Origin: an uncultured Thermoproteaceae archaeon
GTDB taxonomy: Archaea > Thermoproteota > Thermoprotei > Thermoproteales > Thermocladiaceae
Direction: 5' to 3'
Assembly: GCA_964575955.1 (NCBI GenBank)
Contig: CAZNTG010000006.1
Coordinates: 32,001 to 96,000 of the forward strand
Length of the DNA: 64,000 nucleotides
Positions 3,049 through 64,000 of this stretch are shown here, one piece after another; the stretch's first letter is position 1, and each line of letters begins with the position of its first letter. A program made the position numbers and the translations under genes. The notes under the pieces are model-generated. The model had not been told where the DNA came from and searched no databases. It saw only the letters and a program-made list of their open reading frames with translations.

Positions 3049-3081
3049 TTTAATATTATCCGAAATCCGATAACGGATAAT
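3049..3081 (+). promoter_or_regulatory. TATA-like box followed by perfect inverted repeat ATTATCCG-N11-CGGATAAT overlapping the wtpA start; candidate operator
   Basis: TTTAATA 3049-3055; arms at 3055-3062 and 3074-3081. Confidence 0.55.
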
Positions 3082-4168: not shown

Positions 4169-4928
4169 GAAGACGTTAATAATATTCTACTCACTATTTT
4201 CAATTGCAATATTATTTATACTAATACCAATAGTAGCATTATTCATATCATTTAGATATGATGTGCTTATTAGTATATTGAAAACTCCACTATATGTTAA
4301 TGAGTTTAAATCTGCCTTAATTACAACATTTAAAGCAGCATTTATATCATTACTAATATTAGTAGTTGTTGGCATACCTGTAGGTTATGTATTGGCTAGA
4401 TCAAATTTTAAATTTAAATCTATTATTGAAGCTTTAATCGACATTCCCTTTGTAATACCTCACCCTATTGTTGGCGTTATGCTTCTTATGGCATTTGGTA
4501 GTAGAGGTATCATATCTATGAGTATTGAAGATACTTTTTGGGGTATAGTGTCGGTTATGGTATTTGTATCTCTACCCTTAATGGTAGATACTATAAAGCT
4601 TGGATTTCTATCAATAGATCCAACACTTGAGTATGTTGCTAGAAGCCTTGGTGCATCATTTTCAAAGACTTTTATAAGTATACTACTACCATTATGTATT
4701 AGAAACATATTTGCAGGATGTATATTATCGCTAGCTAGGTCTCTTAGTGAAGTTGGTGCTTTACTAATACTAGCATACTTTCCAAAAACTATCAACATTC
4801 TCATACTTGATTGGTTTGATACTCTAGGTTTACCATATGCTGTTGTCGTATCTTGTCTATATCTACTAATAATACTTATAATGTTCATAGTGTTGAGAAT
4901 AGTTACTAAGACACATGTTACTTATTAA
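4143..4928 (+). CDS. wtpB: Tungstate/molybdate ABC transporter permease
   Basis: Multi-TM; DIPFVIPHPIVG, EAA-like LEYVARSLGAS, ARSLSEVGA. Confidence 0.92.
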   Translation: MSSRILQVEKTLIIFYSLFSIAILFILIPIVALFISFRYDVLISILKTPLYVNEFKSALITTFKAAFISLLILVVVGIPVGYVLARSNFKFKSIIEALIDIPFVIPHPIVGVMLLMAFGSRGIISMSIEDTFWGIVSVMVFVSLPLMVDTIKLGFLSIDPTLEYVARSLGASFSKTFISILLPLCIRNIFAGCILSLARSLSEVGALLILAYFPKTINILILDWFDTLGLPYAVVVSCLYLLIILIMFIVLRIVTKTHVTY

Positions 4929-5652
4929 AGATTTAGAGATTAAAGTTGGTGATGTACATATATATGTTAAAAATATATCAGTAGATAAGTATGAATATTG
5001 TATATTGTTAGGTCCTAGTGGTGTTGGTAAGACACTTCTATTAAACTCTATTGTTGGTTTTATAAAGCCTTTGAGAGGTAGTATAATTATTGATGATATT
5101 GATGTTACAAACTTACCACCAGAGAAGAGAGGTATTGCTATCGTTCCTCAAAATTTTGCATTATTTCCACATATGTCTGTTTATGATAATCTTGCATTTC
5201 CTCTTAAAATTAAGAAGCTTAATAAGAGAGAGATTGAGAGAAGGATTATTGAGATTTCTAGACTTTTAGAAATTGAAAATGTTCTCAATAGGAAACCAAG
5301 TACTTTAAGTGCTGGTGAAGCTCAGAGAGTTGCTATTGCTAGAGCACTATTATCTGAGCCTAGAGTTCTACTTCTAGATGAGCCATTATCAAATCTTGAT
5401 CCAGGTAGAAAACTTTCAGCTATGAGACTTCTACATAGTCTATGTAAAGAGAGAGATATCTACATAATACATGTCACACATGATATAGCTGAAGCTGTGA
5501 TACTCGGTGATAAGATATACTACATGTCTGGTGGTGAAATTGTATTTGAAGGTACGTCTAGGGAATTTTTAGAATCTATATATGCTAGACCATATATAGA
5601 TCTTATTAAGAAGGTTTTTGAAGTGTATAGTCTGGCTAGATCCCCCTTATAA
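4915..5652 (+). CDS. wtpC: Tungstate/molybdate ABC transporter ATPase
   Basis: Walker A GPSGVGKT, signature LSAGE, Walker B LLLDEP, H-loop VTHD. Confidence 0.92.
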   Translation: MLLIKDLEIKVGDVHIYVKNISVDKYEYCILLGPSGVGKTLLLNSIVGFIKPLRGSIIIDDIDVTNLPPEKRGIAIVPQNFALFPHMSVYDNLAFPLKIKKLNKREIERRIIEISRLLEIENVLNRKPSTLSAGEAQRVAIARALLSEPRVLLLDEPLSNLDPGRKLSAMRLLHSLCKERDIYIIHVTHDIAEAVILGDKIYYMSGGEIVFEGTSREFLESIYARPYIDLIKKVFEVYSLARSPL

Positions 5653-9282: not shown

Positions 9283-9921
9283 ATGTCTTCAGCACATAAG
9301 TCATTGATAGGGAAATGGGCACTTAAGAAGTGGTTTATAGTACATGCACCACCTGCACTTAAGTGTGTAGAGATTGGTGAAGTTCCAGCTGATAGTCCTG
9401 AAAAGCTTCTAAATAGGACAATTGAGATAAGTCTATTTGAACTTACTAGAGATCTATCTCACATACCTATAAAATTGAAGTTTCAAATATATAGAGTAGA
9501 GGGTGAACATGCATATACAAGATTTAAGCTACAGGAACTTACGAGAGATTATGTAAAATCTCTTGTTCGTAGAGGATCTTCAAAAATTGTAACTATTCAT
9601 GATGTTACAACACCTGATGGTGCTAAGATGAGAATTCAAGTTTTGGCAATCACAGCTTATAGATGTAATACAAGTCATAAGAAGGCTATTAGAGCAATTA
9701 CAAGAGAGAGACTAGATTACTACTCGAAAATTCTAAACTTCGATAACTACATGCTAGCTCTCATATTTGGAACAATAGCACAGGACGTGTTAGTACATGC
9801 TAAAAAGATATATCCATTAAGGAAGGTTGAGATATTGAAAGTCAAAGTACTGGACTATCCTGAACAGTTCAAGAAGTTGGAAGTTGTTGAAAAACCTGTT
9901 GCTGAAGCTGTTCAAGAATAA
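9283..9921 (+). CDS. rps3ae: 30S ribosomal protein S3Ae (eS1)
   Basis: KWALKKWF, RDYVKSLVRRGSSKI, KKIYPLRKVEI. Confidence 0.96.
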   Translation: MSSAHKSLIGKWALKKWFIVHAPPALKCVEIGEVPADSPEKLLNRTIEISLFELTRDLSHIPIKLKFQIYRVEGEHAYTRFKLQELTRDYVKSLVRRGSSKIVTIHDVTTPDGAKMRIQVLAITAYRCNTSHKKAIRAITRERLDYYSKILNFDNYMLALIFGTIAQDVLVHAKKIYPLRKVEILKVKVLDYPEQFKKLEVVEKPVAEAVQE

Positions 9922-9923
9922 TT

Positions 9924-10571
9924 TTAATACTCTTCCTCACCTTCAATAACATCTCTCCATTCAACTCCAACATCTTCTCTAAACATAGATCCAACACCAG
10001 ATACAAGTTCTTCAAGTTTTCTACGTCTCATCTCTCTTCTCCATGACTGTAATCTTCTATACACTGTTGCATGTTGTCTACCTCTTATCAGTAATTCTAT
10101 TGCTTCTCTAGCAGCTTTAGCATTTTCATACTCTCCAATAATTGCAACAGCTTTATCAGATACTACTATCTTAGTACCTGAAAGTTCTTCAATAGTCTTT
10201 CTAGCTCTACCTTCTTCACCAATTACTCTACCTTTAATTCTAATTAGATGATTTATCTTTGACTTATCTATATAATCTCTAAAATCTATAACCATCAACA
10301 CGTAGTTAGGCTTTTTCAACTCTAGTGCAGTATTTATATCAAATCCGTAGTTTAATGCTTCAATAACTTCTTTAGCTTTCATAATTTGATTAAGGCTGGT
10401 GTTTTCCTTAGGTTCAATAATTACCTGACCTGTTGGGTCAATACTTATCTTAACATTCAACTCTCTCTCAAGAATATCTTTATGTTTCTCAACATATCTA
10501 AGTCTATTCCTATCCATACTAATCACAATTCTACCTCTAACACCATCTACAGACCAGGTATTTATAGACAT
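9924..10571 (-). CDS. KH-domain RNA-processing protein (Pno1/Dim2/Rrp20)
   Basis: RIKGRVIGEEGRAR, GRQHATVY. Confidence 0.92.
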   Translation of the reverse strand: MSINTWSVDGVRGRIVISMDRNRLRYVEKHKDILERELNVKISIDPTGQVIIEPKENTSLNQIMKAKEVIEALNYGFDINTALELKKPNYVLMVIDFRDYIDKSKINHLIRIKGRVIGEEGRARKTIEELSGTKIVVSDKAVAIIGEYENAKAAREAIELLIRGRQHATVYRRLQSWRREMRRRKLEELVSGVGSMFREDVGVEWRDVIEGEEEY

Positions 10572-10629
10572 AGATTACACTACGATTAGCATATTTATTA
10601 AGCTGATCTTAAGAAGATCCTTAGATCGT

Positions 10630-11592
10630 TTAGAGTGTTGACATTATTGAATCAAATATTAAGTAGAATATTACAGATATCAGAGGTGAGTACAGTATTG
10701 CTAACAATAGTGCAATTCCATAAACATTAAAGTATGGAGGTTTCATAAATGCTAACATTTTCTGCATAAATCCAGTGACACCTATGGGGATACCCGCAAA
10801 TAATAGTTGTGGTAGTGTAAACGCTGCATATATTATCAATATTAATGATGGTGCTAGAAATGCCATTATTGAATATGTCTGAAATAGCAGTGTAAGTGTT
10901 GTTAATACTTGTCTCAGTCTTAAGAACTTATCCCTAACAAGAACATTCAACTTCTGCAATATTATTCTCTCAGGTTCAGTTGTAAGTTGAATACTTTGAA
11001 TTAATGCAGACATGACATCTTTATACACTATAGATCTTGTTCTATCTATACTCCTCTTTATAGCTGTTATAATATCAACACCAAGCATACAATCTTTTAA
11101 AATAAGTCCAAGCTCATGTCTAATTTCAGGATCTTTCTCAACTTGATAAAGCCTAGTCAACACCTCTATCAATGGTGCAGATGTTGCTAATAGTGGAACC
11201 ATATATGATACAGTATATAGAAACCTCTCGTTTAGATGTGTGTCCCTTCTATAAATTTTCATTAAAACATTACCTAAGAGCCCTACTAAAGCCATGAATA
11301 GTCCCATTAAAGTTATCGATGCTGTCAATATTACATATTTCAATATTACCATTCTAGTTATTGTGTAGAGTATTGATAATCCTATACATATTGGTGTAAA
11401 TAGTATTATACTGTAAAGTATTGATAGTAGTAGATATTTAAATAAGTTCTTATTTATTCTATATCCTGTATATTCATAAAATCTATTAGATATATTTTCT
11501 GAAAATGTGTTAAGTATTCTAGCTATATTTCTTACATGTACTAATATTCTAGTGAACTTTAATACCCTCTTAAGGTTACTTGTCTTCATCAA
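10630..11592 (-). CDS. Type IV pilus/T2SS F-family membrane platform protein (TadC/ArlJ-like)
   Basis: TM pair plus T2SSF cytoplasmic domain (ILKDCMLGVDIITAI) plus C-terminal TMs; downstream of secretion ATPase. Confidence 0.85.
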   Translation of the reverse strand: MMKTSNLKRVLKFTRILVHVRNIARILNTFSENISNRFYEYTGYRINKNLFKYLLLSILYSIILFTPICIGLSILYTITRMVILKYVILTASITLMGLFMALVGLLGNVLMKIYRRDTHLNERFLYTVSYMVPLLATSAPLIEVLTRLYQVEKDPEIRHELGLILKDCMLGVDIITAIKRSIDRTRSIVYKDVMSALIQSIQLTTEPERIILQKLNVLVRDKFLRLRQVLTTLTLLFQTYSIMAFLAPSLILIIYAAFTLPQLLFAGIPIGVTGFMQKMLAFMKPPYFNVYGIALLLAILYSPLISVIFYLIFDSIMSTL

Positions 11593-11621
11593 ATTTTTGT
11601 GTATAGTATATTCAACTCCTT

Positions 11622-13193
11622 TTAAGGTATTACTCCTGAAATAACCTTAAAGTAAGTATCTTCGGGATTTATGTGATAGCTTCTAAAGATTCTAAATACT
11701 GTTGCTGGATCTCTAAAGTTGTATCTTGCCATTGCTTCTAGAATTTCTTTACGTCTTTGAACTTCATTAATTAGATTTTCATATGGTACGAGCCTGACCT
11801 CTGCAATTTCTTTCAATAGCTCGCTCTCCTCATATTTTTCAACTCTATCTGTGAGTGGATTGTATTTGTATGGTGTTATAAATCTTGGTTTACCATTTTC
11901 AAATCCTCTAAATTCTTTAATTTCTATTACTCTTCTAACGATTCTATCGAATATTCTAACTCTCTGAATATTGCAAAATACATGAGCCATTCTTAACAAT
12001 CTTTTAGGCACATTCATAGGTTTTGTTGTTAATCTCATTATTGCTGCCTCTACAGTATCTGCATGCAGTGTTGTTAATCCTGCATGTCCACTTGCAAATG
12101 CTTGAAATAGTGCATATGCCTCTTCACCTCTAATCTCACCAATAACTAGGTAGTCTGGTCTTATTCTCATTGAGACTTTTATAAGGTCGAACTGTGTTAT
12201 CTCTCTAACCTGTGGATTGAATGATGGTCTTGTAAGTAATGGAACCCACTGTTCATGTGGAATATTTATCTCTCTAGTATCTTCAATAGTGACTATTCTA
12301 ACTTCAGGACGTATCAAGTATAGTAGTGAGTTTAATAATGTCGTCTTACCACTACCTGTAGGTCCAATAATTACAACATTAAACTTATAATCGATGACAG
12401 TCCATAGATATGCTGCTGCTTCAGCACTTATAGTTCCAGCCTTTATTAAGTCCACTATTGTGAATGGTTCAGTTCTAAACTTTCTAATATTTATACAATG
12501 TCCAAGTGGTGCAATATCACTTAGAGCTGCTTCAACTCTAGCAAAATTACCTATAAGACCTTCAAGTATTGGATTAGCACTACTTACATTTCTCTTTACA
12601 ATTTGTGAAATTTTTACGATATAATTATATATTTCCTCGGCAGTTTCAAATTTTACATTTGTCCTAAGATGCTCATAATAGCTATGCCATACATATACAT
12701 ACCTTCCAGGACCATTAACATTGATATCTTCAATATATGGATCACGCATTAATGGATCAAGCTTTCCAAATCCAACAACATCTCTCATTATGTAGTACAT
12801 GTACTTTCTCAATACTGAGTCAGGTATGTCTAATTTGAGCTTCTTAATAGCATCTTTAACATATCTTTCTAATCTCTCTTCAGGAAACGAGGTTCTTCCA
12901 GTTAAAACGTCATCTAAGATCTTTCTATCTTTCATAATTATATCTCTGACAAACTCTCCAATCAATTCTAGATTCTTCACATCTTCATCTGTTAATGGTG
13001 GTTCAACAACATTGTATACTAGAACACCTTCTTTCTCATCTCTATAAATTATGACATAGACAAATCCAGGAATTACACTATATACATCTCTGAGAAGTAT
13101 CGCACTTTTACTCTCTAGAATCTTTTGAATATGTTCCTCCTTAACTTCTGTTTGTGACGTTGCTTTAATCACGTTTCTACATTTATTTTTCAA
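11622..13193 (-). CDS. Type IV pilus assembly ATPase (ArlI/TadA/VirB11 family)
   Basis: DPLMRDPYIEDI, GPTGSGKTT, IEDTRE, RIRPDYLVIGEIRG, GHAGLTTLHA. Confidence 0.95.
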   Translation of the reverse strand: MKNKCRNVIKATSQTEVKEEHIQKILESKSAILLRDVYSVIPGFVYVIIYRDEKEGVLVYNVVEPPLTDEDVKNLELIGEFVRDIIMKDRKILDDVLTGRTSFPEERLERYVKDAIKKLKLDIPDSVLRKYMYYIMRDVVGFGKLDPLMRDPYIEDINVNGPGRYVYVWHSYYEHLRTNVKFETAEEIYNYIVKISQIVKRNVSSANPILEGLIGNFARVEAALSDIAPLGHCINIRKFRTEPFTIVDLIKAGTISAEAAAYLWTVIDYKFNVVIIGPTGSGKTTLLNSLLYLIRPEVRIVTIEDTREINIPHEQWVPLLTRPSFNPQVREITQFDLIKVSMRIRPDYLVIGEIRGEEAYALFQAFASGHAGLTTLHADTVEAAIMRLTTKPMNVPKRLLRMAHVFCNIQRVRIFDRIVRRVIEIKEFRGFENGKPRFITPYKYNPLTDRVEKYEESELLKEIAEVRLVPYENLINEVQRRKEILEAMARYNFRDPATVFRIFRSYHINPEDTYFKVISGVIP

Positions 13194-13362
13194 GTGAAGA
13201 GTTTATTTTCTTTAATCTTTATTCACATACATAGGGACTACAATACGTATTAAGTTTAGAGTTAAAAGACTTAAAAAAAGAGAGGAGAGAAGACCTCGAA
13301 GAATTGCTATAGAGCAAATTATCAAACTACCATTATACATTTTAGTACTTTTATGCATATTA

Positions 13363-14217
13363 ATGGTAGCTATGCAATCTTTGAAGAAAAGTCCAATCGT
13401 GTTTACGGCAGTGATTCTCAATAAGACGTTTAGAATACCCTATTCTCCATTTGAACCAAGGTTTGTATTAGAACTAATATTTCTATCGATAGCACTTGTT
13501 AGTCCAGTAGCCTTCTATGAGTATAGTAGATACAAACTTCTATATAGAATTGAAGATCAGCTACCTGTAGTTACTAGAATTATTGCTGATGCTCTAAGAA
13601 CAGGAACAGTAATTGAAGATGCGATACAACTTATCGCCAGAAGTGGTATTAGTCCTATAAATAAGATATTAGGGAAAGCACTTGTATTAAGTAGATATAG
13701 ATCTATACCAATAACTGAATCTATAAGAATTTTAGGAAATAGTATTGGTGCTGAACAACTTGTCAGATTTGCAGACCTTATAGAACTCGCGTATAGGTAT
13801 GGTGCAAGAGCTGAAGAAATCTTAGAGGTGGCTGCAAGTACCATGGAATCAATACAGACTTACAAAAGGGAAAGAATGGTAAATCTTAGACCATATGTAG
13901 CACTCATATACATGATAGTATTCGTATACTTGTTCATATGTGGTATAATTGCTGTCCTCTCAGCTCTACACATTACAAACCCTATGGGTCATGTAAAGAT
14001 GAGCATTAACGAGACTACATTAAACATGATGTTGTCAGTTGTTGAATATATAACTCTAATAAATGTTGCAGGTGCATCATTAGTCATTGGTAGAATAGTT
14101 TATGAAAGACCACTTGCAGGCCTGATACACTACGTCATATTAGCACCAACAACATACTTCACATTAATAGTAATGAAAGCACTTCTAATCAGGATGCTAA
14201 TTCCTGGAGTAGTATAG
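13363..14217 (+). CDS. Second T2SS F-family platform protein (TadB/C-like), divergent from ATPase; true start probably upstream
   Basis: IEDQLP...IADALRTG, LRPYVALIY; frame open from 13216. Confidence 0.85.
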   Translation: MVAMQSLKKSPIVFTAVILNKTFRIPYSPFEPRFVLELIFLSIALVSPVAFYEYSRYKLLYRIEDQLPVVTRIIADALRTGTVIEDAIQLIARSGISPINKILGKALVLSRYRSIPITESIRILGNSIGAEQLVRFADLIELAYRYGARAEEILEVAASTMESIQTYKRERMVNLRPYVALIYMIVFVYLFICGIIAVLSALHITNPMGHVKMSINETTLNMMLSVVEYITLINVAGASLVIGRIVYERPLAGLIHYVILAPTTYFTLIVMKALLIRMLIPGVV

Positions 14218-22836: not shown

Positions 22837-24450
22837 TTGAGAATGAAGTCTTACAACTCTAATGGGTATCCTATAGTTATCACGTCTGACAGGGCTACCA
22901 TGACTAACTATAGTAATTTTAATGCACTTGGATTCTTACTATGCTTACCTGAGAGAATATTACCATCGTTTATAGCTAAACATTTTGTCGCACCCAAGAT
23001 GAAAGTTGATAAGTGTGGTAGACCTATACTACTTCCGTATGCATTAAGAAAAATTGAAGCTGCACTATACATGTCAGGTTTTACTGATAGAGATTTCATA
23101 ATAACAGCTCCTGAATTAGTGAGTAAGTTTATTGGACCTAACACTAAGATTGTTGCTATTCATGTACTTGATCCACTTGGACTAGCACCTGTAAGCTATA
23201 CTTTAAAAGCACTGTTTGGTGGTGGACAAACTTGGACTACTAGATTCTTTCTAGAGCTTATAGAGAAGTTGAAAAAGTTGAAAGATATCTATAAGTTTAC
23301 ACTGATAGCTGGTGGTCCTGGAACATGGCAGTTGAGATATCTATATAGAGATTTGGGTATTGACCTTCTAATACATGGTGAAGGTGAGGTCATATTTCCT
23401 GAAGTTTGTAAATCTATACTTAATGGTGAGAAGATTGAAGGTGAGATTGATGGTGGTTCAGTACCATTAGAGCTTATTCCAGCTATTAGAGGTCCCTCTA
23501 GAGGTGGTATGGTTCAGATTACTAGAGGTTGTCCACGTAGATGTAGATTTTGTAATCCAACAATGTTCAATTTTAGATCAATACCACTAGAGGTAATTGG
23601 TAAAGAGGTTGAAATTAATAAGAGAGCAGGCTATCGATTACAGAGTCTAGTTACTGAAGATGGCTTACTATACGGTGCTAAGGGTGTAGTAGTGAATAGA
23701 GATGCACTTAGAAAACTTATGAAGGTATTGAAGGAGAGAGGTGTTAGAGGAGATTTCTGTCATGTATCTATAGCAGCAACAGTACAGGCACCTGACATAG
23801 TTGAAGAGTGGGCTAGAGAAAATGGACATCTTGAAGACTGTGCATTTCCACAGGTAGGTCTTGAAACAGGTAGTCCAAGACTACTCAAGATGTATATGGC
23901 AGGTAAAGCAGCACCATTCAAAGTTGAGGAATGGCCTGAAATAGCTGAAGAAGCTACAGATATAATGAATAAGTGCAAGTGGTATCCGTGCTACACACTA
24001 ATACTAGGACTTCCAGGAGAGACTGAAGATGATGTTAAAGCAACGATAGATCTCATAAAGAGATTGAAAGGTAGGAAATGTTGGATATTTCCACTACTAT
24101 TTGTACCAATGGGTGGTTCAAAGCTTGAAGATAAAGATTTTGCAGATACTGAAATATTGAAGAATGATACATATATAGAAGTTATATATGAAATGTTAGA
24201 TCACAATATACAATACACACTATCAATACTTGACTTATTCGTAAGTAGAATTACCAATAAGATTGCTAGAAATGTAATGAAGAAATTTATTGGAAATAGT
24301 GTAAAGGCATTAGAAGGACTTAAAAATGAAGTTAAGAAAGACTTTCCAAAAATATTAGAAACTGCTAAAAATGTAGACTTTAATAATCCAATATCATTAT
24401 CAAAGCTAGTTATAGGGTGGATATTTAATAAGTTTAGAAGAAGATGTTAA
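22837..24450 (+). CDS. B12-binding-domain radical SAM protein
   Basis: RGCPRRCRFC, AGGPG, GEGE, GLETGS, ILGLPGET. Confidence 0.92.
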   Translation: MRMKSYNSNGYPIVITSDRATMTNYSNFNALGFLLCLPERILPSFIAKHFVAPKMKVDKCGRPILLPYALRKIEAALYMSGFTDRDFIITAPELVSKFIGPNTKIVAIHVLDPLGLAPVSYTLKALFGGGQTWTTRFFLELIEKLKKLKDIYKFTLIAGGPGTWQLRYLYRDLGIDLLIHGEGEVIFPEVCKSILNGEKIEGEIDGGSVPLELIPAIRGPSRGGMVQITRGCPRRCRFCNPTMFNFRSIPLEVIGKEVEINKRAGYRLQSLVTEDGLLYGAKGVVVNRDALRKLMKVLKERGVRGDFCHVSIAATVQAPDIVEEWARENGHLEDCAFPQVGLETGSPRLLKMYMAGKAAPFKVEEWPEIAEEATDIMNKCKWYPCYTLILGLPGETEDDVKATIDLIKRLKGRKCWIFPLLFVPMGGSKLEDKDFADTEILKNDTYIEVIYEMLDHNIQYTLSILDLFVSRITNKIARNVMKKFIGNSVKALEGLKNEVKKDFPKILETAKNVDFNNPISLSKLVIGWIFNKFRRRC

Positions 24451-31416: not shown

Positions 31417-32700
31417 TTAATATTTAACAATTTTTGATATGAAAAATCCAGAACATCTATGTATGTGAGGTAAAATGATAACACACTTCCTGAGTATAGG
31501 ACTAGAAATACCCAACTTTAAAATTCCAGTATAGTCAATATCGACATTGTCTAAATTAAGCATAGAGATAACATTATACTCATTCTCTTCATATGTTAAA
31601 GTACATGTACAATAATACACAGTACTACCTCTCAAAACTTTACTTAACACATTTCTAAGAAGATTTCTCTGAAGTCTAGACTTATTTAAAACATCTATAG
31701 GAGTTAACCACATCTTAATTTCAGGATTATGTTGAAGTCTACCTAAACTAGAACAGTCAGGATCTATTAAAAATAGTTTAGTACTATCTCTAAGCTTAAT
31801 AGGAAGATATGTAGAATCAGTATGCACATAGTCAACATTGTATAACCTAATTCTCTCAACATTCCTCTTAATCTCTAAAATTCTTCTTCTAGAAATTTCA
31901 AAACCTATAGTATAAAATCCATATTGAGATATGTAAGACATCTTATTACCAGGACCTGCTGTCAAATCTATAAAAATAGTCTTATACTTCCTACACTCCT
32001 CGAGGAGTAGTTTAGATATAGCTAAACTAGCCTTATCTTGAGGATATATTAAACCATCTCTATACTCTTTCAATTTAGTAACATTAACATCACTATGAAT
32101 AACTATTAAATCATCAAAGTCTGGATCAACACTACAAGAAATACCTTTCTCGTTGAGTCTTCTAACAACTTCGTAAACACTTACTAGATGTGTACATACT
32201 CTAACATACTTAACAGGTTTTTCCATTAAAAACTTCAACAAATCTTCTATACTATCCTCAACATACATCATAAATCTCTCAATAATCCATCTGGGTGTTG
32301 AATATTTTACACTTAATTTCTCAATAAAATCTTTACCATGTAGTAATTCGTTGATATCAAAATTCTTAGATAGTAAAGCTATATCTCTTATACATAGTTT
32401 AAATTTTCTTAAGAATCTATACAACTTATCTACACTGTAATTTCTATACAATATCTCATAAACTAAGACTCGTAGAAGATTTTTTCTATAATTATCCAAT
32501 CTTTCAAGTTTTATATTCAAAAATTCTCTACATATTGCATCTATAGTTAAATATCTCTTTGCAATATTTATTGAGAGAGCTTTAATTATAGGTCTAATAT
32601 TTTCATATTTTATAAGTTTATATATTGAGTCTCTTATAGTTGTCTTCTTCTCAATACAGTATGTGAGTACTTTTGCTGTTAATTCTTCTATCGATAACAT
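31417..32700 (-). CDS. RsmB/NOP2 family RNA m5C methyltransferase
   Basis: QDKAS, DLTAGPGNK, DPDCSSLG, YCTCTL...ENE, GFFI. Confidence 0.9.
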   Translation of the reverse strand: MLSIEELTAKVLTYCIEKKTTIRDSIYKLIKYENIRPIIKALSINIAKRYLTIDAICREFLNIKLERLDNYRKNLLRVLVYEILYRNYSVDKLYRFLRKFKLCIRDIALLSKNFDINELLHGKDFIEKLSVKYSTPRWIIERFMMYVEDSIEDLLKFLMEKPVKYVRVCTHLVSVYEVVRRLNEKGISCSVDPDFDDLIVIHSDVNVTKLKEYRDGLIYPQDKASLAISKLLLEECRKYKTIFIDLTAGPGNKMSYISQYGFYTIGFEISRRRILEIKRNVERIRLYNVDYVHTDSTYLPIKLRDSTKLFLIDPDCSSLGRLQHNPEIKMWLTPIDVLNKSRLQRNLLRNVLSKVLRGSTVYYCTCTLTYEENEYNVISMLNLDNVDIDYTGILKLGISSPILRKCVIILPHIHRCSGFFISKIVKY

Positions 32701-33998
32701 TCTAATGTCACACTACTTCTCAAAGATAAACTTTCAATTATATACTTATGTATTTTCTCAGCTAATTCTTCCTGTTCTCTCCAATATCCTTCAAGTCTCT
32801 TCAACTTCTCTATCTCTCTAAGTGTTTCTAAATATTTTGGATGTATCTTTCCTGGCTTCTCATTTTCAAATGGTGTTCCGGGTAGTGGCATAAATGTATG
32901 TCCACGAATTATACATCCCTTCTTTGCAAATTCAAGCATTACTTTTGAAGTTATTTCAACATCTTCTTCAGTTTCTCCAGGTAGTCCAAATATGAAGTCT
33001 AGACATGGTGTATATCCATATTCTAGACATAGATCAACAGCCTCGTATACACATTCAATATTGTGACCTCTACCTATGTAATTTAGTAGTCTATTACTAC
33101 CTGTCTGTACTCCAATCGAGATCTTCTTATTATCTACATATTTTGAAACTACTTCAAGAACATCTCTATTAATAAAGTCTGGTCTTACCTCACTTGGAAA
33201 TGTTCCTAATACAAGTTTTGATTTACCTTCAACAGCTTCATAAGATGTTTTTAACATATTTTCAAGTGCTTTAATATTTGGTCTCTTACAATCTTTAGAA
33301 CCATATGCAAATCCATTTGGTGCTAAGTATCTTATAGTTTTAATACCAATCTTATAGTAATGTCTACACCATCTATATATTTCGTCAAGACTTCTATACC
33401 TAACCTTAAACATGTATATTCTAGGTGTTTGACAATACTTACATGCATGTTTACAACCTCTCATAATTTCAAGTGGTGCATATATTCTGAACCTGTCAAC
33501 ATATGGGCATGATGTATAGATCTTATCAGGAATGTAGTCTAGAGTCTTTATAATCTTCTCACCATCTCTATAAACTATATTTGGAACATCTCTCAAATCT
33601 TCATAACTGACTAGAGCATCTAGAAGTCTAGGTATTGTAATCTCACCTTCTCTAAGAACAGCAATATCAAAACCAAGTCTCAATAATGTACCTACAGGAT
33701 CACCAGATGCATGAGGACCACCAGCAATAAGTACTAAGTCGTGAGTTTTTCTAAGATCTCTAAGCATTTTCAATTCTTCAATAATCTCAACATCAAATAT
33801 TTGAGGTGTCATAAGTGAATACATCACAACTATGATATCTGAATCACATTTTAGAACTTCATTAACAACATCTCTAGCTAGGATTATATTCTTAACAAAT
33901 CTTCTAGATATTGAATAATTTTCAAGTATTGATAGTACATAAGCTAGAGAAAATCTACTAAGATCAGAATACTTAACTATTATAGTAACACTCTTCAC
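32688..33998 (-). CDS. B12-binding radical SAM protein (TIGR04013-like)
   Basis: AGGPHASGDP, RGCKHACKYCQTP, GTFPSEVRPD. Confidence 0.9.
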   Translation of the reverse strand: MKSVTIIVKYSDLSRFSLAYVLSILENYSISRRFVKNIILARDVVNEVLKCDSDIIVVMYSLMTPQIFDVEIIEELKMLRDLRKTHDLVLIAGGPHASGDPVGTLLRLGFDIAVLREGEITIPRLLDALVSYEDLRDVPNIVYRDGEKIIKTLDYIPDKIYTSCPYVDRFRIYAPLEIMRGCKHACKYCQTPRIYMFKVRYRSLDEIYRWCRHYYKIGIKTIRYLAPNGFAYGSKDCKRPNIKALENMLKTSYEAVEGKSKLVLGTFPSEVRPDFINRDVLEVVSKYVDNKKISIGVQTGSNRLLNYIGRGHNIECVYEAVDLCLEYGYTPCLDFIFGLPGETEEDVEITSKVMLEFAKKGCIIRGHTFMPLPGTPFENEKPGKIHPKYLETLREIEKLKRLEGYWREQEELAEKIHKYIIESLSLRSSVTLECYR

Positions 33999-34053: not shown

Positions 34054-35901
34054 GTGACAAGTCTAACAATGAATATAGTAGATGTCGATAGTGGAAAGAT
34101 TGAAAAACTTCAAATAGATTTTAAAGATATTAGAAAGTTAATACACCCAACATTAATAATGTATAAGATATCTAAAGATCTAAATCTTAAGAATATACTA
34201 GCAATACTTCAACATCCATCAAAGCTATTTAAAATTCCTGGAACAACATCAATATACTTAATAGATATTGAAAATGATAAGATTAGCTGTGTTAGAGCAC
34301 TTGTAGGAAATATAGATTTTAAACATAAGTTCTTTGGAATATTATTCAAAGATAGGAAGCCTTCAACAATAACTATAGAAGATGATAAAATTCTATTTAA
34401 TGAACCTAAAGATAAAGATCAATATGCTAAGATAGTTGTAGATAAGGATAGATTAACTACAGACATATTTTCAATAAAGCACAATCTAAATATTGACAAA
34501 TTCGAAATATATGTTAAGAAGAGTATTAACGATTCTACAGATGTAGATATTGATAGAGAGTTTATTAGAAAAATAGAAATTCTATATAAATACTCACCAA
34601 TCATCGGTGAAGACTCTCCGGTCAGAAGACATGGTCTAAAAGCAATTATTAATAAGTTAGTTGGTTTAGAACTTAGAGAAGATGTTAAGACTAATATTGA
34701 AAATGTTAGAAGTGATTTAAGATTTTGCTGTAATTACTGTGATGTGTCTTGTCTTAATTCTATATATAACTATAATATTTTTTATTATGACTATATGTAT
34801 AGTATTATTCAAGATTTTGTATATGATAACGATCTTTTAAGTAGATTGAAGTCTAGTTGTGACGATCTTTTCTACATAGTACAGATGTTGTATATGTGTA
34901 GATTTAACTATCCTGAAAAGCTTGAGAAAGGTTTTGAGAAACCTAGTTCTAATCTATACTACTCTATAAGTATGCTTGGTCTATGTCCATTATGTATGTT
35001 ACTCTTCTCTAAGTCTAGAGATTTCAATATTGATATACCTATACAAATTTTGAAATATCTATACAAAATTGATGTTAAGTTAGACGATTTTATTAAGATT
35101 ATTGAAAAGTTCAGGCCAACATTTAGATTTTCTATAATGTTGAAGAATGTTGAAGATATTTTGAAGATTATGTATCAATTTAATGATGTTGATAAACCTG
35201 TCAATTATATTCATCCTAACTCTATTCTTAGAGATAGGAAAGTTCAGGTTGCTATTGATGTAGTTGATGTCCCTGAGCGTATTATTGATATTGCTTTTAC
35301 ATGTATATCTTCTGGAATTGATATTGTTGAAGTAGGTACACCATTATTGAAGTATTATGGAGTTAAGATTGTGGAGTTGTTGAGATCTAACCTTCCTGAG
35401 GGTACTATAATATTTGCAGATACAAAAACTATGGATGTTGGTGATCTAGAGGCAAGAATTATGTATATACATGGTGCTGATATGGTATCTACAATGGCTA
35501 TTGGAACATTATCTAAAATTAAGGAGGCAATATTTGAAGCTGCAAAATTTGACAAGATTCTACTTATAGATTTAATGCAGTGTGAAAATCCTATAAGAAA
35601 GATAGAGGAAATGAGAGAAATTCTCGAAAAAGCATATCCGTGGATAATCATATGTGTTCATAGAGGAATAACAGAGCAGATAAGAGGAATGGGTATTGAG
35701 TCAGATATAGATCTTATCAGAAAGATTAGAGAGATCTTACCTAAAGAGATACCACTAGCAGTTGCTGGAGGAATAAAGTTGGGAATAGCTAAGAAAGTTG
35801 TAGATGCAGGAGCAAATATTGTTATAGTAGGTGCAGCAATATACACATCTAGAGATATTGGAGAAACAGCTAGAAAGATTGTGAAAGAAGTTAAGTCTTA
35901 A
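34054..35901 (+). CDS. Fusion: degenerate aldehyde:ferredoxin oxidoreductase-like N-terminal region plus 3-hexulose-6-phosphate synthase (HPS/KGPDC family) C-terminal domain
   Basis: C-term VQVAID, IVEVGTPLLK, ADTKTMDVG, AVAGGI, IVGAAI (confident); N-term resembles AOR motifs (less certain). Confidence 0.75.
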   Translation: MTSLTMNIVDVDSGKIEKLQIDFKDIRKLIHPTLIMYKISKDLNLKNILAILQHPSKLFKIPGTTSIYLIDIENDKISCVRALVGNIDFKHKFFGILFKDRKPSTITIEDDKILFNEPKDKDQYAKIVVDKDRLTTDIFSIKHNLNIDKFEIYVKKSINDSTDVDIDREFIRKIEILYKYSPIIGEDSPVRRHGLKAIINKLVGLELREDVKTNIENVRSDLRFCCNYCDVSCLNSIYNYNIFYYDYMYSIIQDFVYDNDLLSRLKSSCDDLFYIVQMLYMCRFNYPEKLEKGFEKPSSNLYYSISMLGLCPLCMLLFSKSRDFNIDIPIQILKYLYKIDVKLDDFIKIIEKFRPTFRFSIMLKNVEDILKIMYQFNDVDKPVNYIHPNSILRDRKVQVAIDVVDVPERIIDIAFTCISSGIDIVEVGTPLLKYYGVKIVELLRSNLPEGTIIFADTKTMDVGDLEARIMYIHGADMVSTMAIGTLSKIKEAIFEAAKFDKILLIDLMQCENPIRKIEEMREILEKAYPWIIICVHRGITEQIRGMGIESDIDLIRKIREILPKEIPLAVAGGIKLGIAKKVVDAGANIVIVGAAIYTSRDIGETARKIVKEVKS

Positions 35902-56075: not shown

Positions 56076-56624
56076 CTATTTTCTAGGTATACACTCTTTA
56101 ATTAGTATTTCAGCAGATGCATATACTGCAGATAGACCACATATAATACCTTCATAACCAGCAACTCTCAATATTGTTAAACTGCCTGTAGCAAATGCTG
56201 CACATAGTAGAAAGAAGAGTATTGTTAAAGTTACGAAGACCACTTTAAGACTTGCAGTACCAGTCTTCAAGACTACTATGGTTAAGTATAGTGTAAATAT
56301 GCCCCACATAAACATCCATGCTGCAAGTTCACCAGAGCCTATAGTTGTCAACTTTAACCATCCTGTAACAGCACTCATAAGTGCTAGACCAATCCAAAAT
56401 AATCCATATGCTGTAAATGCTGTACCTCCAAATGTCGATCCTCTTCTAAACTCTATAATTCCAGATATTACCTGTGCAAGACCACCAAAGAAGAATCCAT
56501 AACACATTGTTAATGTTGCTGTTTTAACAATACCTGCATTATACAGATTTAGCAGTACTGTAGTTAATCCAAAAGCTGCAAGTCCCAGTGATGCTGGATT
56601 ACCCCATTGATTAGTTGTTGACAT
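56076..56624 (-). CDS. Acetate uptake transporter (SatP/YaaH, GPR1/FUN34 family)
   Basis: GNPASLGLAAF signature, FFGGLAQ, TFGGTAFTAYG; six TMs. Confidence 0.93.
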   Translation of the reverse strand: MSTTNQWGNPASLGLAAFGLTTVLLNLYNAGIVKTATLTMCYGFFFGGLAQVISGIIEFRRGSTFGGTAFTAYGLFWIGLALMSAVTGWLKLTTIGSGELAAWMFMWGIFTLYLTIVVLKTGTASLKVVFVTLTILFFLLCAAFATGSLTILRVAGYEGIICGLSAVYASAEILIKECIPRK

Positions 56625-60363: not shown

Positions 60364-62004
60364 GTGTTATCACTTCAATCTCTACTTAACAAAGTTGGAG
60401 TTGAAATATCGCCAGACATAGTAAATAGGATTAGAGAACTTTCAAGAGAAAGAGAGTTGAAAAAGGGTGATGAATTCCCAATACCTGCAGGAACGTTAAT
60501 AGCAATACTTGACGGTATAGTTGAGATAAATGGAGAATTAAACTGTGTTGGAGATTTACTATACTGTGAAGATACTATAGATTTAAAATGTATAAGTAGT
60601 AATTGTGTATTGTTAGAGATAGATAAAGAGGTAATGTCTATAATACCAGAAAATATTAGAGATAAATTAATAAGATTTTCAAAAGTTATTAAAAGTGAGG
60701 AATACATACCTGTAAAACTATTTGTAAAGAGAATACCAATAACACTTAAGAAAGATGCAACATTGATAGAAGCTGCTAGGATAATGTATGAGAAGGGTAT
60801 TAGCTCTGTAATACTTGTAGACGATGAAGATAGACCAATAGGAATAGTTACAGATTCAGATTTAAGAAGAGCACTTGCACTTGGTGTAGATCCAAAAACT
60901 AGATTAGGAGAATTTAGTTTAAAACAGGTATATGTAGCTCAAGAAGATGAACCACTAAATATAGCTCTTGAGAGAATGCTTGTACATGGTGTTAAACATC
61001 TAGTAATTGTTGATAATAATGGTAGAGTTAGTGGAATGGTAACTGCTAGAGATCTACTAGATGCATATACTGCAGTTCCACTAGCTCTCTTAAGAGAACT
61101 TCAGAGAGATTTAACTGTAGATGATGTGAAAACAACATATTCAAGAATAATAAAACAGGTAATAAATGTATCTAAAGAACGTAGTATAGATATTTTAGAA
61201 TTTTCAAGAATATTCTCAATAGCTAAGATATTGCTAATACGTAAATTATTAGAAATTGAGTGCAAAGCTATTCAGGAAGAGTGTACAGTATTTATAGAAA
61301 TACCACTAGCAACATATAGTCATGTTATTGGTGAACCTGTAAGACTATACATAATATCTGAAAGTTATGAAAAGATAAGTGATCAAGTACTTAGACTTAG
61401 AACTGACATATCGAGAATTCCAGATGTAAGTGAGACCTTAAGTGTAGAGACATATACTTATGAAGATGTTAAGAATAATGTAGAGTTATTAACAAATATT
61501 GAAGTATTTTCAAGATATTTATGGGGTAGTAAGTTTAGTATCGATATTAATGATGAGATATATGCAAACATCATGCGAAGATTAGCAAGAATATGTGCTG
61601 AAATTGAAATACCTCTAGACATGTTTGGTAAGATAAAAGTGAAGACTTTAGACATTGCTAGACATATAGTAATTCCACTAGAGAGAATGTTAGCAATGCT
61701 ACACTACGTATGTATGGGTAGTCGTGTAAAAGTTAGACCACATAGAGCAATACATATGCTTCATGAGAGAGGACATATAACAGAGGAAATTGTTGAAGAT
61801 CTATTCTTCATATACTTCCAAATTAAGAATCTACTAATTAAGACATGTGTAAACAACTACCTAACTAGAGGTGAGATAAGTACTGAAGTTAAGATTGATG
61901 AAATACCTGACACTGAGCTAGATATAATTCGTAGAGGATTGAGAGTGTTGAAGGAGTTGAAAGAGAGGACTCTCTCAATAATAACTAGGTATGTTGTTGT
62001 GTAA
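60364..62004 (+). CDS. cNMP-binding plus CBS pair plus degenerate DUF294 nucleotidyltransferase protein
   Basis: LKKGDE...ILDGIVEI; CBS GIVTDSDL, GMVTARDL; C-terminal LDMFGKIK..LDIARHIVIPL resembling DUF294_C. Confidence 0.75.
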   Translation: MLSLQSLLNKVGVEISPDIVNRIRELSRERELKKGDEFPIPAGTLIAILDGIVEINGELNCVGDLLYCEDTIDLKCISSNCVLLEIDKEVMSIIPENIRDKLIRFSKVIKSEEYIPVKLFVKRIPITLKKDATLIEAARIMYEKGISSVILVDDEDRPIGIVTDSDLRRALALGVDPKTRLGEFSLKQVYVAQEDEPLNIALERMLVHGVKHLVIVDNNGRVSGMVTARDLLDAYTAVPLALLRELQRDLTVDDVKTTYSRIIKQVINVSKERSIDILEFSRIFSIAKILLIRKLLEIECKAIQEECTVFIEIPLATYSHVIGEPVRLYIISESYEKISDQVLRLRTDISRIPDVSETLSVETYTYEDVKNNVELLTNIEVFSRYLWGSKFSIDINDEIYANIMRRLARICAEIEIPLDMFGKIKVKTLDIARHIVIPLERMLAMLHYVCMGSRVKVRPHRAIHMLHERGHITEEIVEDLFFIYFQIKNLLIKTCVNNYLTRGEISTEVKIDEIPDTELDIIRRGLRVLKELKERTLSIITRYVVV

Positions 62005-62010
62005 AAATAT

Positions 62011-62922
62011 ATGGTTAAGATTGGAATACTTACAAGAAATCCAAATGGATGGGCAACACAACAACTTAGAAAAGCCGCACTCGAACTTGGATATCAAATA
62101 ACAACATTTAGATTTAGAGATCTATCAGTTAAGATTGAGAGTGATAATGTAGAAGTATATTTTAGAGACACTAAGTTGAAAGATGTTGTAGATATTGTAC
62201 TTGTAAGACCAATAGGTAAGTGTAGTCTTGAACAGGCAATATATAGGATGGATCTACTACACTTAATTAAAGAACTTGGAATATATGTTATAAATGATCC
62301 TAAAAGTATAGAAATTGCAATTGATAAATTTAGAACATTATACATACTTGCTTTAAATGGGTTAAAAGTTCCATATACAATCGTTACAGAGAATGAGTAT
62401 AGGATATATGATGTTGATAAAATTCCTGAAAGATTAATTATAAAACCTCTATTTGGATCGAGAGGACATGGAGTATTTAGCATATCTAATATGGGTAATG
62501 TAGAATATTTTAGAGATTTTATATGGAGAATATGTTTCTACCTAACTAGTATGAGGAGTGTAGTATATATTCAAGAACAGGTATCTACAAAAGGTGAAGA
62601 TTATAGACTTCTAGTAGTTGGTGATAGAGTTATAGCTGGTATGTTAAGAAAGTCTGAGGTTGGTTGGAAAACTAACATATCTGTAGGTGGTAAACCAATA
62701 CCTCTCAAGAAAATTCCTAAAGAAGTTGAAGATATGGCATTAAAGGCTTGTAAAATTATTGGTTGTGAAATTGCTGGTGTTGATATAATTAGAGGTGATG
62801 ATGATAATTACTACATACTTGAACTAAATACTCAACCTGGCTGGAGAGGTCTTCAACAATGTACTAATATTGATATTGCGAAAGAAATTATAAATTACTT
62901 AGCTGAGAAAGTTAAGAAATGA
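62011..62922 (+). CDS. RimK-family ATP-grasp alpha-L-glutamate ligase (MptN/CofF-like by context)
   Basis: DKFRT, IKPLFGSRGHG, YIQE, DYRLLV, WKTNISVGG, AGVD, LELN; overlaps ftr start. Confidence 0.88.
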   Translation: MVKIGILTRNPNGWATQQLRKAALELGYQITTFRFRDLSVKIESDNVEVYFRDTKLKDVVDIVLVRPIGKCSLEQAIYRMDLLHLIKELGIYVINDPKSIEIAIDKFRTLYILALNGLKVPYTIVTENEYRIYDVDKIPERLIIKPLFGSRGHGVFSISNMGNVEYFRDFIWRICFYLTSMRSVVYIQEQVSTKGEDYRLLVVGDRVIAGMLRKSEVGWKTNISVGGKPIPLKKIPKEVEDMALKACKIIGCEIAGVDIIRGDDDNYYILELNTQPGWRGLQQCTNIDIAKEIINYLAEKVKK

Positions 62923-63878
62923 TCACAATTGATGAAGTTTTAAGTAAGATAGATGACACGTTTGCTGAAGCATTTCCAATGTATGTGTCTAGAGTATTAG
63001 TCACTGCTGATAGTAGGAAGTGGGCACTTATAGCTGGTAAATTAGCTACAGGTTTTGCAACATCAATAATATTATCACCATGTGAAGCAGGTATTGAAAA
63101 GCTTGTAAGTTCAAAATCAACACCTGATGGTAGGGTTGGAGTATTATTACAATTTTGGCATAGTGATCTAACAAATCTAAAACTTCAACTGATATTAAGA
63201 TTAAGTCAGGTGGTCTTGACATGTCCAACAACTAGAGTATTTGATGGTCTTCCTAAAAGTAGAAGAAAATTCACAATTGGTAAAAGTATTGCAAGATTTG
63301 GAGATGGATTTGAATATGAAGCTGAGATTTTTGGAAGAAAAATGTGGATTATACCTGTAATGGATGGAGAATTCATGATTGAAGATAAGGTAGGAGTAGT
63401 TAAGGGTGTTGCAGGTGGTAACATAATCATACTAGGAAAAGATAGGAGAGGTACACTAGAAGCTGCGTATAGAGCAGCAAGAGCAATTCAAAGAGCAGGT
63501 CTTAGAGTAATACTTCCATTCCCAGGTGGAGTATGTAGAGCAGGTTCAAAACCTGGATCTAGAGTATATAAGAAGGTTAAAGCTACAACAAATCACCCGT
63601 TCTGTCCAACACTAAAAGATAAGATACAAGATACGAAACTTACAAAAGATGTTGAATGTGTATATGAGATAGTCATAAATGGACTTACTGAAAGAGATGT
63701 AAAAATTGCAATGGGTATAGCAGCAATAGTAGCATCAAAACATGAATCAGTGATTAAGATTACATGTGGAAACTATGGAGGAAAATTAGGACCATACAAG
63801 ATATTTCTAAAAGATGCTATTAAGGAAGCATTAGAAAACTATAGAGATTTACTAAATAGACTTACAACCTTAACATAA
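62919..63878 (+). CDS. ftr: Formylmethanofuran--tetrahydromethanopterin N-formyltransferase
   Basis: IDDTFAEAF, TGFATSII.SPCEAGIE, TPDGRVG, LTCPTT, FGDG, PVMDGEF, GVAGGN, ATTNHPFCPTL, EIVING, GNYGGKLG. Confidence 0.96.
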   Translation: MITIDEVLSKIDDTFAEAFPMYVSRVLVTADSRKWALIAGKLATGFATSIILSPCEAGIEKLVSSKSTPDGRVGVLLQFWHSDLTNLKLQLILRLSQVVLTCPTTRVFDGLPKSRRKFTIGKSIARFGDGFEYEAEIFGRKMWIIPVMDGEFMIEDKVGVVKGVAGGNIIILGKDRRGTLEAAYRAARAIQRAGLRVILPFPGGVCRAGSKPGSRVYKKVKATTNHPFCPTLKDKIQDTKLTKDVECVYEIVINGLTERDVKIAMGIAAIVASKHESVIKITCGNYGGKLGPYKIFLKDAIKEALENYRDLLNRLTTLT

Positions 63879-64000
63879 TCATCTAACGTATCAATATCAA
63901 TAATATCGTTAAGATCAAATATTGGTAAACTAGTCCAAGATAGCTCTTTACCAAAAATACACCTATCAGCATATACTAGACTAACATTACTAACACTACC
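63839..64000 (-). CDS. Partial (C-terminus) NTP-transferase, MobA/CobY/CofC-like
   Basis: ...PIFDLNDIIDIDTLDDYVKVVSLFSKSL*; DIDTxDD C-terminal motif. Confidence 0.55.
   Translation of the reverse strand, partial: GSVSNVSLVYADRCIFGKELSWTSLPIFDLNDIIDIDTLDDYVKVVSLFSKSL

Follow-up and report, generated by a model that had tools for sequence, protein, structure and literature searches.

A gene for formylmethanofuran:tetrahydromethanopterin N-formyltransferase (Ftr), coupled to a gene for a RimK-family ATP-grasp L-glutamate ligase, lies at the end of a 64,000-nucleotide stretch of DNA from an uncultured Thermoproteaceae archaeon of a hot environment (C6:32001-96000; the whole stretch is referred to as the window). 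Our analysis indicates that the genome very probably encodes a complete Wood-Ljungdahl pathway (WLP) of the tetrahydromethanopterin (H4MPT) type in a non-methanogen, and that the ligase-ftr pair would be one fragment of this H4MPT-dependent pathway in an uncultured genus of Thermoproteales. The genome (designated G000) is a 1.52-Mb metagenome-type assembly of 15 contigs that is 94.7% complete, with 0.53% estimated contamination and a GC content of approximately 33%. A first-pass annotation of the window had named a Wood-Ljungdahl methyl branch as one of two possible routes; this was right and understated, as all of the methyl-branch enzymes are encoded together with carbon monoxide dehydrogenase (CODH)/acetyl-CoA synthase (ACS).

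Genes of the pathway and its coenzymes

Gene families were assigned from Pfam and NCBIfam profile scores, given here in bits and compared with the curated cut-offs, with a protein atlas and solved structures as additional evidence. Three samples were used for comparison: 41 genomes of the order in eight genera (g1-g8; many complete at 1.8-2.5 Mb), seven of which, including G000, make up the window's genus (g1); 98 genomes of the class, each at least 80% complete, in 36 genera; and 80 ftr loci (numbered with the prefix L), which include many from Thermoproteota and a bacterial locus (L080, a Chloroflexia record).

The window Ftr (319 aa; 62919-63878, plus strand) contains both lobes of the enzyme (PF01913, 172.4; PF02741, 184.3) and scores over the cut-offs of NF002554 (378.6; cut-off 297) and TIGR03119 (349.9; cut-off 292.6). 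Its best match among solved structures is M. barkeri Ftr (1M5S, 292 bits), to whose segment 'VYEIVINGL' the window's 'vyeivingl' is aligned; the YEIVING segment is thereby kept together with its acidic residue, which we take to be the catalytic Glu of M. kandleri Ftr. The protein is predicted to be a genuine formylmethanofuran:H4MPT formyltransferase, and with E-values of 1e-51 to 1e-113 chance matches are ruled out for the window genes. A second Ftr paralogue (333 aa; C7:100618-101619, plus strand; L088:8618-9619) was also observed, which is 32% identical to the window Ftr, retains the EIVIN segment and scores 219.7 with NF002554, under the cut-off of 297. All genomes of the genus carry such a paralogue; in the sister genus the corresponding copy adjoins ftr and cdhC, and the paralogue forms a long-branch clade with that copy in the Ftr tree.

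The other enzymes of the pathway were found on contigs C2, C3, C6, C9 and C15. FwdA (707.8; cut-off 392.75) and Mer (371.1; cut-off 348.7) are encoded on C3, and FwdC (TIGR03122, 220.9; cut-off 130.65) and Mch (PF02289, 182; cut-off 25) on C6. Contig C15 carries a FwdD-FwdB fusion (445.7; cut-off 327.8; C15:2092-4008, minus strand; L104:2092-4008), Mtd of the F420-dependent type (361.5; cut-off 297) and a CooS-type CODH (638.5; cut-off 478). CdhC (595.6; cut-off 355.95), CdhD (355.3; cut-off 252.9), CdhE (521; cut-off 306) and CdhA are encoded on C9, and CdhB (PF02552, 80; cut-off 21) on C2. In terms of the proposed mechanism, a tungsten/molybdenum formylmethanofuran dehydrogenase consisting of FwdA, FwdD-FwdB and FwdC would fix CO2 onto methanofuran, the window Ftr would transfer the formyl group from methanofuran to H4MPT, Mch, F420-dependent Mtd and Mer would carry out the reduction to methyl-H4MPT, and acetyl-CoA would be formed by CdhABCDE from the methyl group, CO and CoA.

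A search of the genome for fwd, mch, mtd, mer, cdh and mfn genes, the check that had accompanied the first-pass annotation, found all of them (mfnB in the last case), so that ftr is accompanied by further H4MPT and methanofuran genes; fae was not found. No match to mcrA (PF02249) or to mtrH was obtained in the genome, with positive controls for both. The lack of McrA, MtrH and Fae, together with the full gene set, points to the WLP of a non-methanogen.

Several observations weigh against this reading. The Mch protein, the product of the sole mch copy in the genome, scores 173.6 with TIGR03120, which is under the equivalog cut-off of 228.8, and Mch of the window's genus is just 25-32% identical to Mch in other Thermoproteota clusters. 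CdhA, at 607.7, is under its cut-off of 781.3, yet this is the best and only strong family for the protein. A DHPS-like protein scores 163.4 with TIGR00284, under the cut-off of 256.65. Finally, the pathway genes are scattered over several contigs and do not form a single operon.

The FwdB part of the fusion protein was compared with M. wolfeii FwdB (5T5I chain B). By position count, its 'svCHgp' aligns to Cys118-His119 of the solved chain, and the N-terminal iron-sulfur (FeS) Cys motif CPFCGxLCD is kept ('vCpfCgllCd' versus 'VCPFCGTLCD' in 5T5I). We take the Cys to be a metal-ligating residue, and the adjacent His and the N-terminal Cys motif to be hallmarks of redox-active Fwd. Because the Cys-His pair and the FeS motif are conserved, the protein looks like a redox-active dehydrogenase and not an Fhc-type hydrolase. 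FwdD is fused to the N-terminus of FwdB, and approximately 70 residues (336-405) have no counterpart in M. wolfeii FwdB; the split FwdD-FwdB match is common to all genomes of the genus and to the sister genus.

Coenzyme synthesis was assessed from marker genes of each route and not from every step. MfnB (118.5; cut-off 22.4; contig C6) marks the methanofuran route, two RFAP synthase genes (153.9 and 145.3; cut-off 113.5) mark the route to a methanopterin-type pterin, and CofG (317.8; cut-off 213.35), CofD (271.7; cut-off 257.45) and CofH (449.8; cut-off 374.1) mark the F420 route. Predicted synthesis genes for methanofuran, a methanopterin-type pterin and F420 are thus present. In addition, a CofE-like protein of 287 aa is encoded between a THUMP-domain gene and cofG (C6:102004-102867, minus strand; L087:7004-7867). 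It was missed by Pfam and NCBIfam and was matched by the protein atlas to F420-0:gamma-glutamyl ligase (feature score 0.94, structure TM 0.85). Its homologues occur within 8 kb of ftr in 26 of the 80 loci, in several of them beside mer or an FrhB-like gene.

Tungstate uptake, which the first-pass annotation had read from the window, was borne out. A WtpA-type tungstate ABC transporter is encoded at 3080-5652 on the plus strand, with the binding protein at 3080-4168 (NF003196, 365.6, cut-off 355; TIGR03730, 337.5, cut-off 242.75) and the permease (4131-4928) and ATPase (4915-5652) assigned by Pfam. This transporter is likely to supply the metal for the tungsten/molybdenum pterin enzyme Fwd.

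The RimK-type ligase and its neighborhood

The ligase gene (303 aa; 62011-62922, plus strand; assigned by Pfam and NCBIfam) and ftr are joined by an ATGA at 62919-62922, in which the start ATG of ftr overlaps the stop TGA of the ligase, as read directly in the sequence. The 3′ end of ftr is in turn overlapped by 40 nt by a convergent gene for a MobA/CobY-like NTP-transferase (184 aa; window coordinates 63839-64393, C6:95839-96393, minus strand; PF12804 (NTP_transf_3), 41.1), of which the last 162 nt (the last 53 codons, 63839-64000) lie inside the window. The ATGA coupling and the converging NTP-transferase had both been described in the first-pass annotation, and the open reading frames, the sequence and the family scores agree with that description. 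Past the window end, the NTP-transferase gene is the last gene of a minus-strand operon that reaches C6:100559 and has the order aminotransferase (class I/II)-fwdC-mch-DHPS-like-NTP-transferase, and cofD, cofG and the CofE-like gene are located a few kb beyond this operon. The window edge cuts through an island of one-carbon (C1) enzyme and coenzyme genes.

The family assignment of the ligase is supported by Pfam (RimK, 93.8; Rimk_N, 47.6) and by the NCBIfam model rimK_fam (180.6; cut-off 143.4). Its best NCBIfam model is MptN_Meth (NF040720), at 225.6 and under the cut-off of 350, followed by LysX (141.6), RimK (106.5) and CofF (90.5). Among the 120 of 552 matches listed, the homologues carry only 'RimK family' names, such as 'RimK family alpha-L-glutamate ligase', and none is a methanogen MptN. 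In a tree of 67 RimK-family proteins, which did not include the reference MptN and MyfB, the window ligase falls in a 47-row clade (SH-aLRT 98) of cluster-linked genes. All 15 RimK paralogues of four WLP-negative genomes are excluded from this clade, as are other paralogues of WLP-positive genomes. Of the 80 loci, 43 have a member of the clade within 8 kb of ftr, as do 34 of the 45 with both FwdA and Mch; the arrangement seen in the window, with the ligase immediately upstream of ftr and in the same orientation, recurs in L007-L011 (from the window's genus and its relatives), L050, L052, L053 and L056. The ligase subfamily is tied to the pathway by its neighborhood and by its phyletic pattern. 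The enzyme most likely adds one or more glutamates to one special coenzyme, which from the position of the gene is predicted to be one of the two Ftr substrates, methanofuran or H4MPT. We class it as a candidate glutamyl ligase of C1 coenzymes, of an MptN-like or a MyfB-like type, with H4MPT, methanofuran and F420 as candidate substrates; F420, the CofF reading, is less likely because the CofF model gives just 90.5 bits.

The ligase may be the archaeal counterpart of bacterial MyfB, an enzyme that would build or extend the glutamate chain of methanofuran, although we hold this assignment tentatively. Archaeal methanofurans carry gamma-linked glutamates, whereas RimK-type enzymes are usually alpha-linking. 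The pattern expected of a MyfB-like ligase is nevertheless the one observed, namely a RimK-type gene in ftr/fwd(fhc)/mch clusters that is confined to genomes with such clusters. In the bacterial locus L080 a member of the 47-row clade is located beside fhcA-ftr-fhcC-mch, but on a long branch (1.02) of the ligase tree, and in genome G008 a clade member lies 136 bp from mfnB. In M. extorquens, MyfB (orf5) is reported to be a RimK-type ligase that shares 33% identity with MptN, is essential for methylofuran and makes polyglutamate in vitro (PMC8141765).

Alternatively, the ligase could be a true MptN, attaching a glutamate through an alpha link to the hydroxyglutarate end of H4MPT, in which case the carrier of this lineage would be of the sarcinapterin type. 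We regard this as possible and somewhat doubtful. It agrees with the rank of MptN_Meth above LysX, RimK and CofF, with the coupling of the gene to that of Ftr, an H4MPT user, and with the DHPS-like pterin enzyme in the convergent operon. However, the score of 225.6 is under the 350-bit cut-off, and the model does not discriminate among the RimK paralogues of these archaea. Three RimK-family genes are present in the genome. The copy on C12 is LysX (312.1; cut-off 275.6), and the paralogue on C2 (C2:31098-31958, minus strand) scores 233.3 with MptN_Meth, which is above the window ligase. MptN_Meth matches were obtained in all 41 genomes of the order, at approximately 158-272 bits and mostly at 205-272, none of them reaching the cut-off, and they occur also in genomes without an Ftr or RFAP synthase match. 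These results weigh against reading the model's first rank as an identification, and the MptN role that the first-pass annotation had in mind for the ligase is not established. The clade of C2-type proteins has counterparts in all 41 genomes, with MptN_Meth as best match at 205-233 bits, under the cut-off; its members are not MptN, because they are found in genomes without Ftr and RFAP synthase matches. The use of an MptN_Meth score as proof of MptN was rejected, since RimK paralogues in all 41 genomes score alike.

Upstream of the ligase, a gene for a CBS-pair/DUF294_C protein of a putative signal-sensing nucleotidyltransferase family (60364-62004, plus strand; Pfam CBS, 90.6; DUF294_C, 28) stops 6 nt ahead of the ligase start. 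The same gene is directly upstream of ligase-ftr in five of the 80 loci (L007-L011). From its position, it may be the first gene of the ligase-ftr transcription unit, and its product may act as a regulator of that unit.

Direction of carbon flow

For the pathway as a whole, CO2 fixation, and with it autotrophy, is the favored direction, because the marker of the 4-hydroxybutyrate cycle is missing; activity and flux are here read from gene content. The hydrogenase-family matches in the genome, together with tungstate uptake, were also counted toward CO2 fixation. As the pathway enzymes are reversible, gene content cannot decide the direction of flux.

The opposite direction is rather unlikely in our assessment. 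In such a scheme imported acetate would be split by CODH/ACS, the methyl group would be oxidized to CO2 via Mer, Mtd, Mch, Ftr and Fwd, and F420H2 and ferredoxin would carry the electrons to a membrane complex and a sulfite reductase of the dissimilatory type, as in Archaeoglobus. Three features count in its favor and would fit it just as well as CO2 fixation: an acetate uptake transporter in the window, a pair of DsrA-like (287.1) and DsrB-like (333.9) proteins, and two NuoD/FpoD-like subunits. An FrhB/FpoF-like gene that adjoins cdhA on C9 would fit as well. The transporter, AceTr (GPR1/FUN34/YaaH; 56076-56624, minus strand), scores over its cut-off (NF038013, 177.8, cut-off 50; PF01184, 105.1), and the acetate transport noted in the first-pass annotation was thus upheld; it provides a context in which acetate could be either a substrate or a product of the pathway. 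The Dsr pair is encoded by divergent genes at C6:257244-259991 (L119:1390-2802, minus strand; L120:1219-2493, plus strand) and represents a possible dissimilatory sulfite reductase. However, the Dsr pair (cut-offs 392.85 for DsrA and 341.5 for DsrB) and the NuoD/FpoD-like subunits are all under the curated cut-offs. In addition, acetate oxidation would leave no other autotrophy marker to supply carbon, as HpaB_N is absent in all seven genomes of the genus, and the hydrogenase-family matches make H2-driven CO2 reduction equally possible.

The second route named in the first-pass annotation, formaldehyde oxidation, fared poorly and is very unlikely. Here the Ftr and Fwd homologues would act as an Fhc-like formyltransferase/hydrolase in formaldehyde oxidation or detoxification, fed by an HPS-domain protein. 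Homologues of Ftr, Mch and Fwd are indeed also parts of the bacterial route, and the window encodes a 615-aa protein (34054-35901, plus strand) with an HPS/OMP-decarboxylase-type domain at residues 396-614. This domain, however, scores 141.5 with TIGR03128, under the cut-off of 200. Fae (PF08714) was without a match in the genome, with positive controls in two genomes, and the MtdB-type N-domain (PF09176) was also without a match, although its control gave none anywhere. The redox Cys-His pair and FeS motif of FwdB, the F420-type Mtd, Mer and the full CODH/ACS also speak against this route.

The HPS-domain protein had been called a fusion in the first-pass annotation, a description that was not supported: besides the sub-threshold HPS domain, neither Pfam nor NCBIfam recognised a family in the N-terminal 395 residues with the thresholds applied, and no usable match for them came from the protein atlas. 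The protein is not a Fae-HPS fusion. The window also encodes two B12-binding radical SAM proteins (32688-33998, minus strand; 22837-24450, plus strand), the first of which scores as a full MJ_1487 family member (TIGR04013, 384.1; cut-off 251), its gene being oriented divergently to that of the HPS-domain protein.

Distribution and relation to known systems

Mis-binning of foreign contigs into the assembly can practically be dismissed as the source of the H4MPT and methanofuran genes, for although the assembly has many contigs and the pathway genes are spread over several of them, the 621-kb contig C6 carries ftr, mch, fwdC, mfnB and cofH as well as genes for ribosomal proteins, PolB and Topo VI, the contigs in question show an even GC content of 32-33%, the gene set is carried by 7 of 7 genomes of the genus, and estimated contamination is the 0.53% given above. 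The pathway genes are not a binning artefact. The Thermoproteales-like placement in the first-pass annotation also fits, as the genome is grouped in one order with many complete genomes of 1.8-2.5 Mb and its closest Ftr relatives, which are 66-82% identical, are records labelled Thermoproteota, Thermoproteales and uncultured Thermoproteaceae archaeon; one genome of the same genus has an Ftr identical to that in the Thermoproteales record.

Among the 41 genomes of the order, scores over the cut-off were obtained for Ftr in 9, FwdA in 10, FwdB in 10, CdhC in 10 and MfnB in 9, and Mer was matched at E<=1e-10 in 10, six of them over the cut-off. The Ftr, Fwd, CdhC, MfnB and Mer matches are confined to three genera: the window's genus g1 (7/7), its sister genus g3 (1/1) and g7 of another family (1-2/2). 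No score over the cut-off for Ftr, FwdA, FwdB, CdhC or MfnB was found in the 31 genomes of g2, g4, g5, g6 and g8, the majority of them complete. RFAP synthase matches came from 8 of the 41 genomes and not from the third WLP genus. The two genomes of that genus have Fwd, Mer and CdhC, and one of them (G026) has Ftr and MfnB as well; RFAP synthase (TIGR00144) gave no match at E<=1e-10 in either G026 or G028, which may reflect a divergent enzyme of the pterin route. In the class, Ftr was found in 17 of 98 genomes and 9 of 36 genera. In summary, the WLP is found throughout the genus, in a scattered way in the order and in a minority of the class.

The dicarboxylate/4-hydroxybutyrate cycle is the textbook pathway of cultured Thermoproteales. 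HpaB_N, of the 4-hydroxybutyryl-CoA dehydratase family, was found in 18 of 21 genomes of the WLP-negative genera g5, g6 and g8 and in none of the 10 WLP genomes, including all seven of the window's genus. Two further genera have neither the WLP nor the HpaB_N marker, and none of the 41 genomes combines the two marker sets.

In the Ftr tree (81 rows), the window Ftr falls in a nine-row clade (SH-aLRT 94) with sequences of the same genus and the sister genus. This clade stands apart from the remaining Thermoproteota, and the third WLP genus is located elsewhere, near Thermofilaceae-type sequences. Forcing the Ftr of the order into monophyly made the tree 23 log-likelihood units worse but was not rejected (p-AU 0.103); the Ftr data are therefore compatible with vertical retention as well as with transfer. 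The mutually exclusive marker sets and the monophyly that was not rejected (p-AU 0.10) support an ancestral WLP. Under such a reading the pathway may have survived only in uncultured, small-genome, low-GC genera, while the cultured genera took up the dicarboxylate/4-hydroxybutyrate cycle in its place. The joint proposal, that the WLP is ancestral in Thermoproteales and that the ligase clade is the enzyme of the archaeal methanofuran glutamate tail (the MyfB counterpart and not MptN), is speculative, and we consider it improbable on balance.

The WLP is common across Thermoproteota MAGs (metagenome-assembled genomes), as the 80 loci include Ignisphaera, Desulfurococcales, Thermofilaceae, Methanomethylicia, Nezhaarchaeales, Culexarchaeia, Korarchaeia-type and Bathyarchaeia records. 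Most of the Thermoproteota loci contain one cluster with the order ftr-mtd-fwdDB-fwdA-fwdC-mch and a ligase homologue at the end; in the window's genus the parts of this ancestral cluster are dispersed over several contigs. A separate observation was made for L031, a Vulcanisaeta sp. JCM 14467 record with an ftr-fwd-mch-ligase cluster. Its Ftr and ligase nest in Ignisphaera-labelled clades, and only partial matches were obtained for FwdDB (9331-10647), FwdA (10680-11909) and Mch (13281-13625), which suggests foreign DNA, a transfer or a frameshift-rich assembly.

The pathway is unusual for the order, yet uncultured lineages related to it were known to have it. Within the same family, a sister genus with the full H4MPT-type WLP and the three coenzymes adds the order to the crenarchaeal WLP lineages, and the contrast within the order is useful for asking whether the WLP was inherited or acquired. 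For a step of C1-coenzyme biosynthesis that is still open, the conserved ligase beside ftr offers a concrete candidate. The system is not of a new kind, as it consists of standard genes in public genomes and as Ignisphaera was reported to have this pathway in 2019. No statement of a WLP in Thermoproteales was found in the literature searched, which consisted in part of excerpted texts; supplementary tables of MAG surveys, which may list the pathway, lay outside that search.

The enzyme set of the window genome resembles that of Archaeoglobus, a non-methanogen with Fwd, Ftr, Mch, F420-dependent Mtd, Mer, CODH/ACS, genes of the dissimilatory sulfite reductase type and an F420H2-dehydrogenase-like module; the two belong to different phyla, and the Dsr and Fpo-like parts found here are under the curated cut-offs. 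Compared with M. wolfeii FwdABCD (5T5I), to whose solved chains the FwdB and FwdD of the window genome match with 393 and 60 bits, the Cys-His pair and the Cys motif are conserved, whereas here FwdD and FwdB are fused, FwdB has some 70 extra residues, and fwdA, fwdDB and fwdC are on three contigs. MptN (MJ0620), the H4MPT:alpha-L-glutamate ligase of Methanocaldococcus jannaschii, resembles the window ligase as a RimK-family ATP-grasp protein of approximately 300 aa that is tied to H4MPT enzymes; the window ligase differs in its score under the MptN_Meth cut-off, with a model that rates a clade of unrelated paralogues just as highly. In Methylorubrum extorquens, MyfB (Orf5) is likewise reported to be an MptN-like RimK-family protein encoded among Ftr, Fhc and Mch genes, and its product, the polyglutamate tail of methylofuran, docks on the formyltransferase complex (PMC8141765). 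MyfB is bacterial and acts on methylofuran, and its likeness to the window ligase is one of family and gene setting.

The closest known system is that of the Ignisphaera MAGs, for which Berghuis et al. (2019, PNAS) described a crenarchaeal WLP and suggested an ancestral WLP in Crenarchaeota/TACK (PMC6421429). The first-pass annotation had called Ftr uncommon among classical Crenarchaeota, a fair description of genomes of the cultured type, with Ftr in 17 of 98 genomes of the class, but one that passes over a WLP already published from crenarchaeal MAGs. The Ignisphaera MAGs resemble the window genome in being non-methanogenic members of the classical Crenarchaeota, in having Cdh, Fwd and Ftr, and in lacking key enzymes of the dicarboxylate/4-hydroxybutyrate cycle; Fae and MtrH are reported there (PMC6421429), whereas neither was found in the window genome. 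The window Ftr is 55-60% identical, and the ligase 40-49% identical, to those of the Ignisphaera-labelled loci. Ignisphaera belongs to Desulfurococcales and has one ftr-mtd-fwd-mch cluster, while the window genome belongs to Thermoproteales and has its genes split over four contigs.

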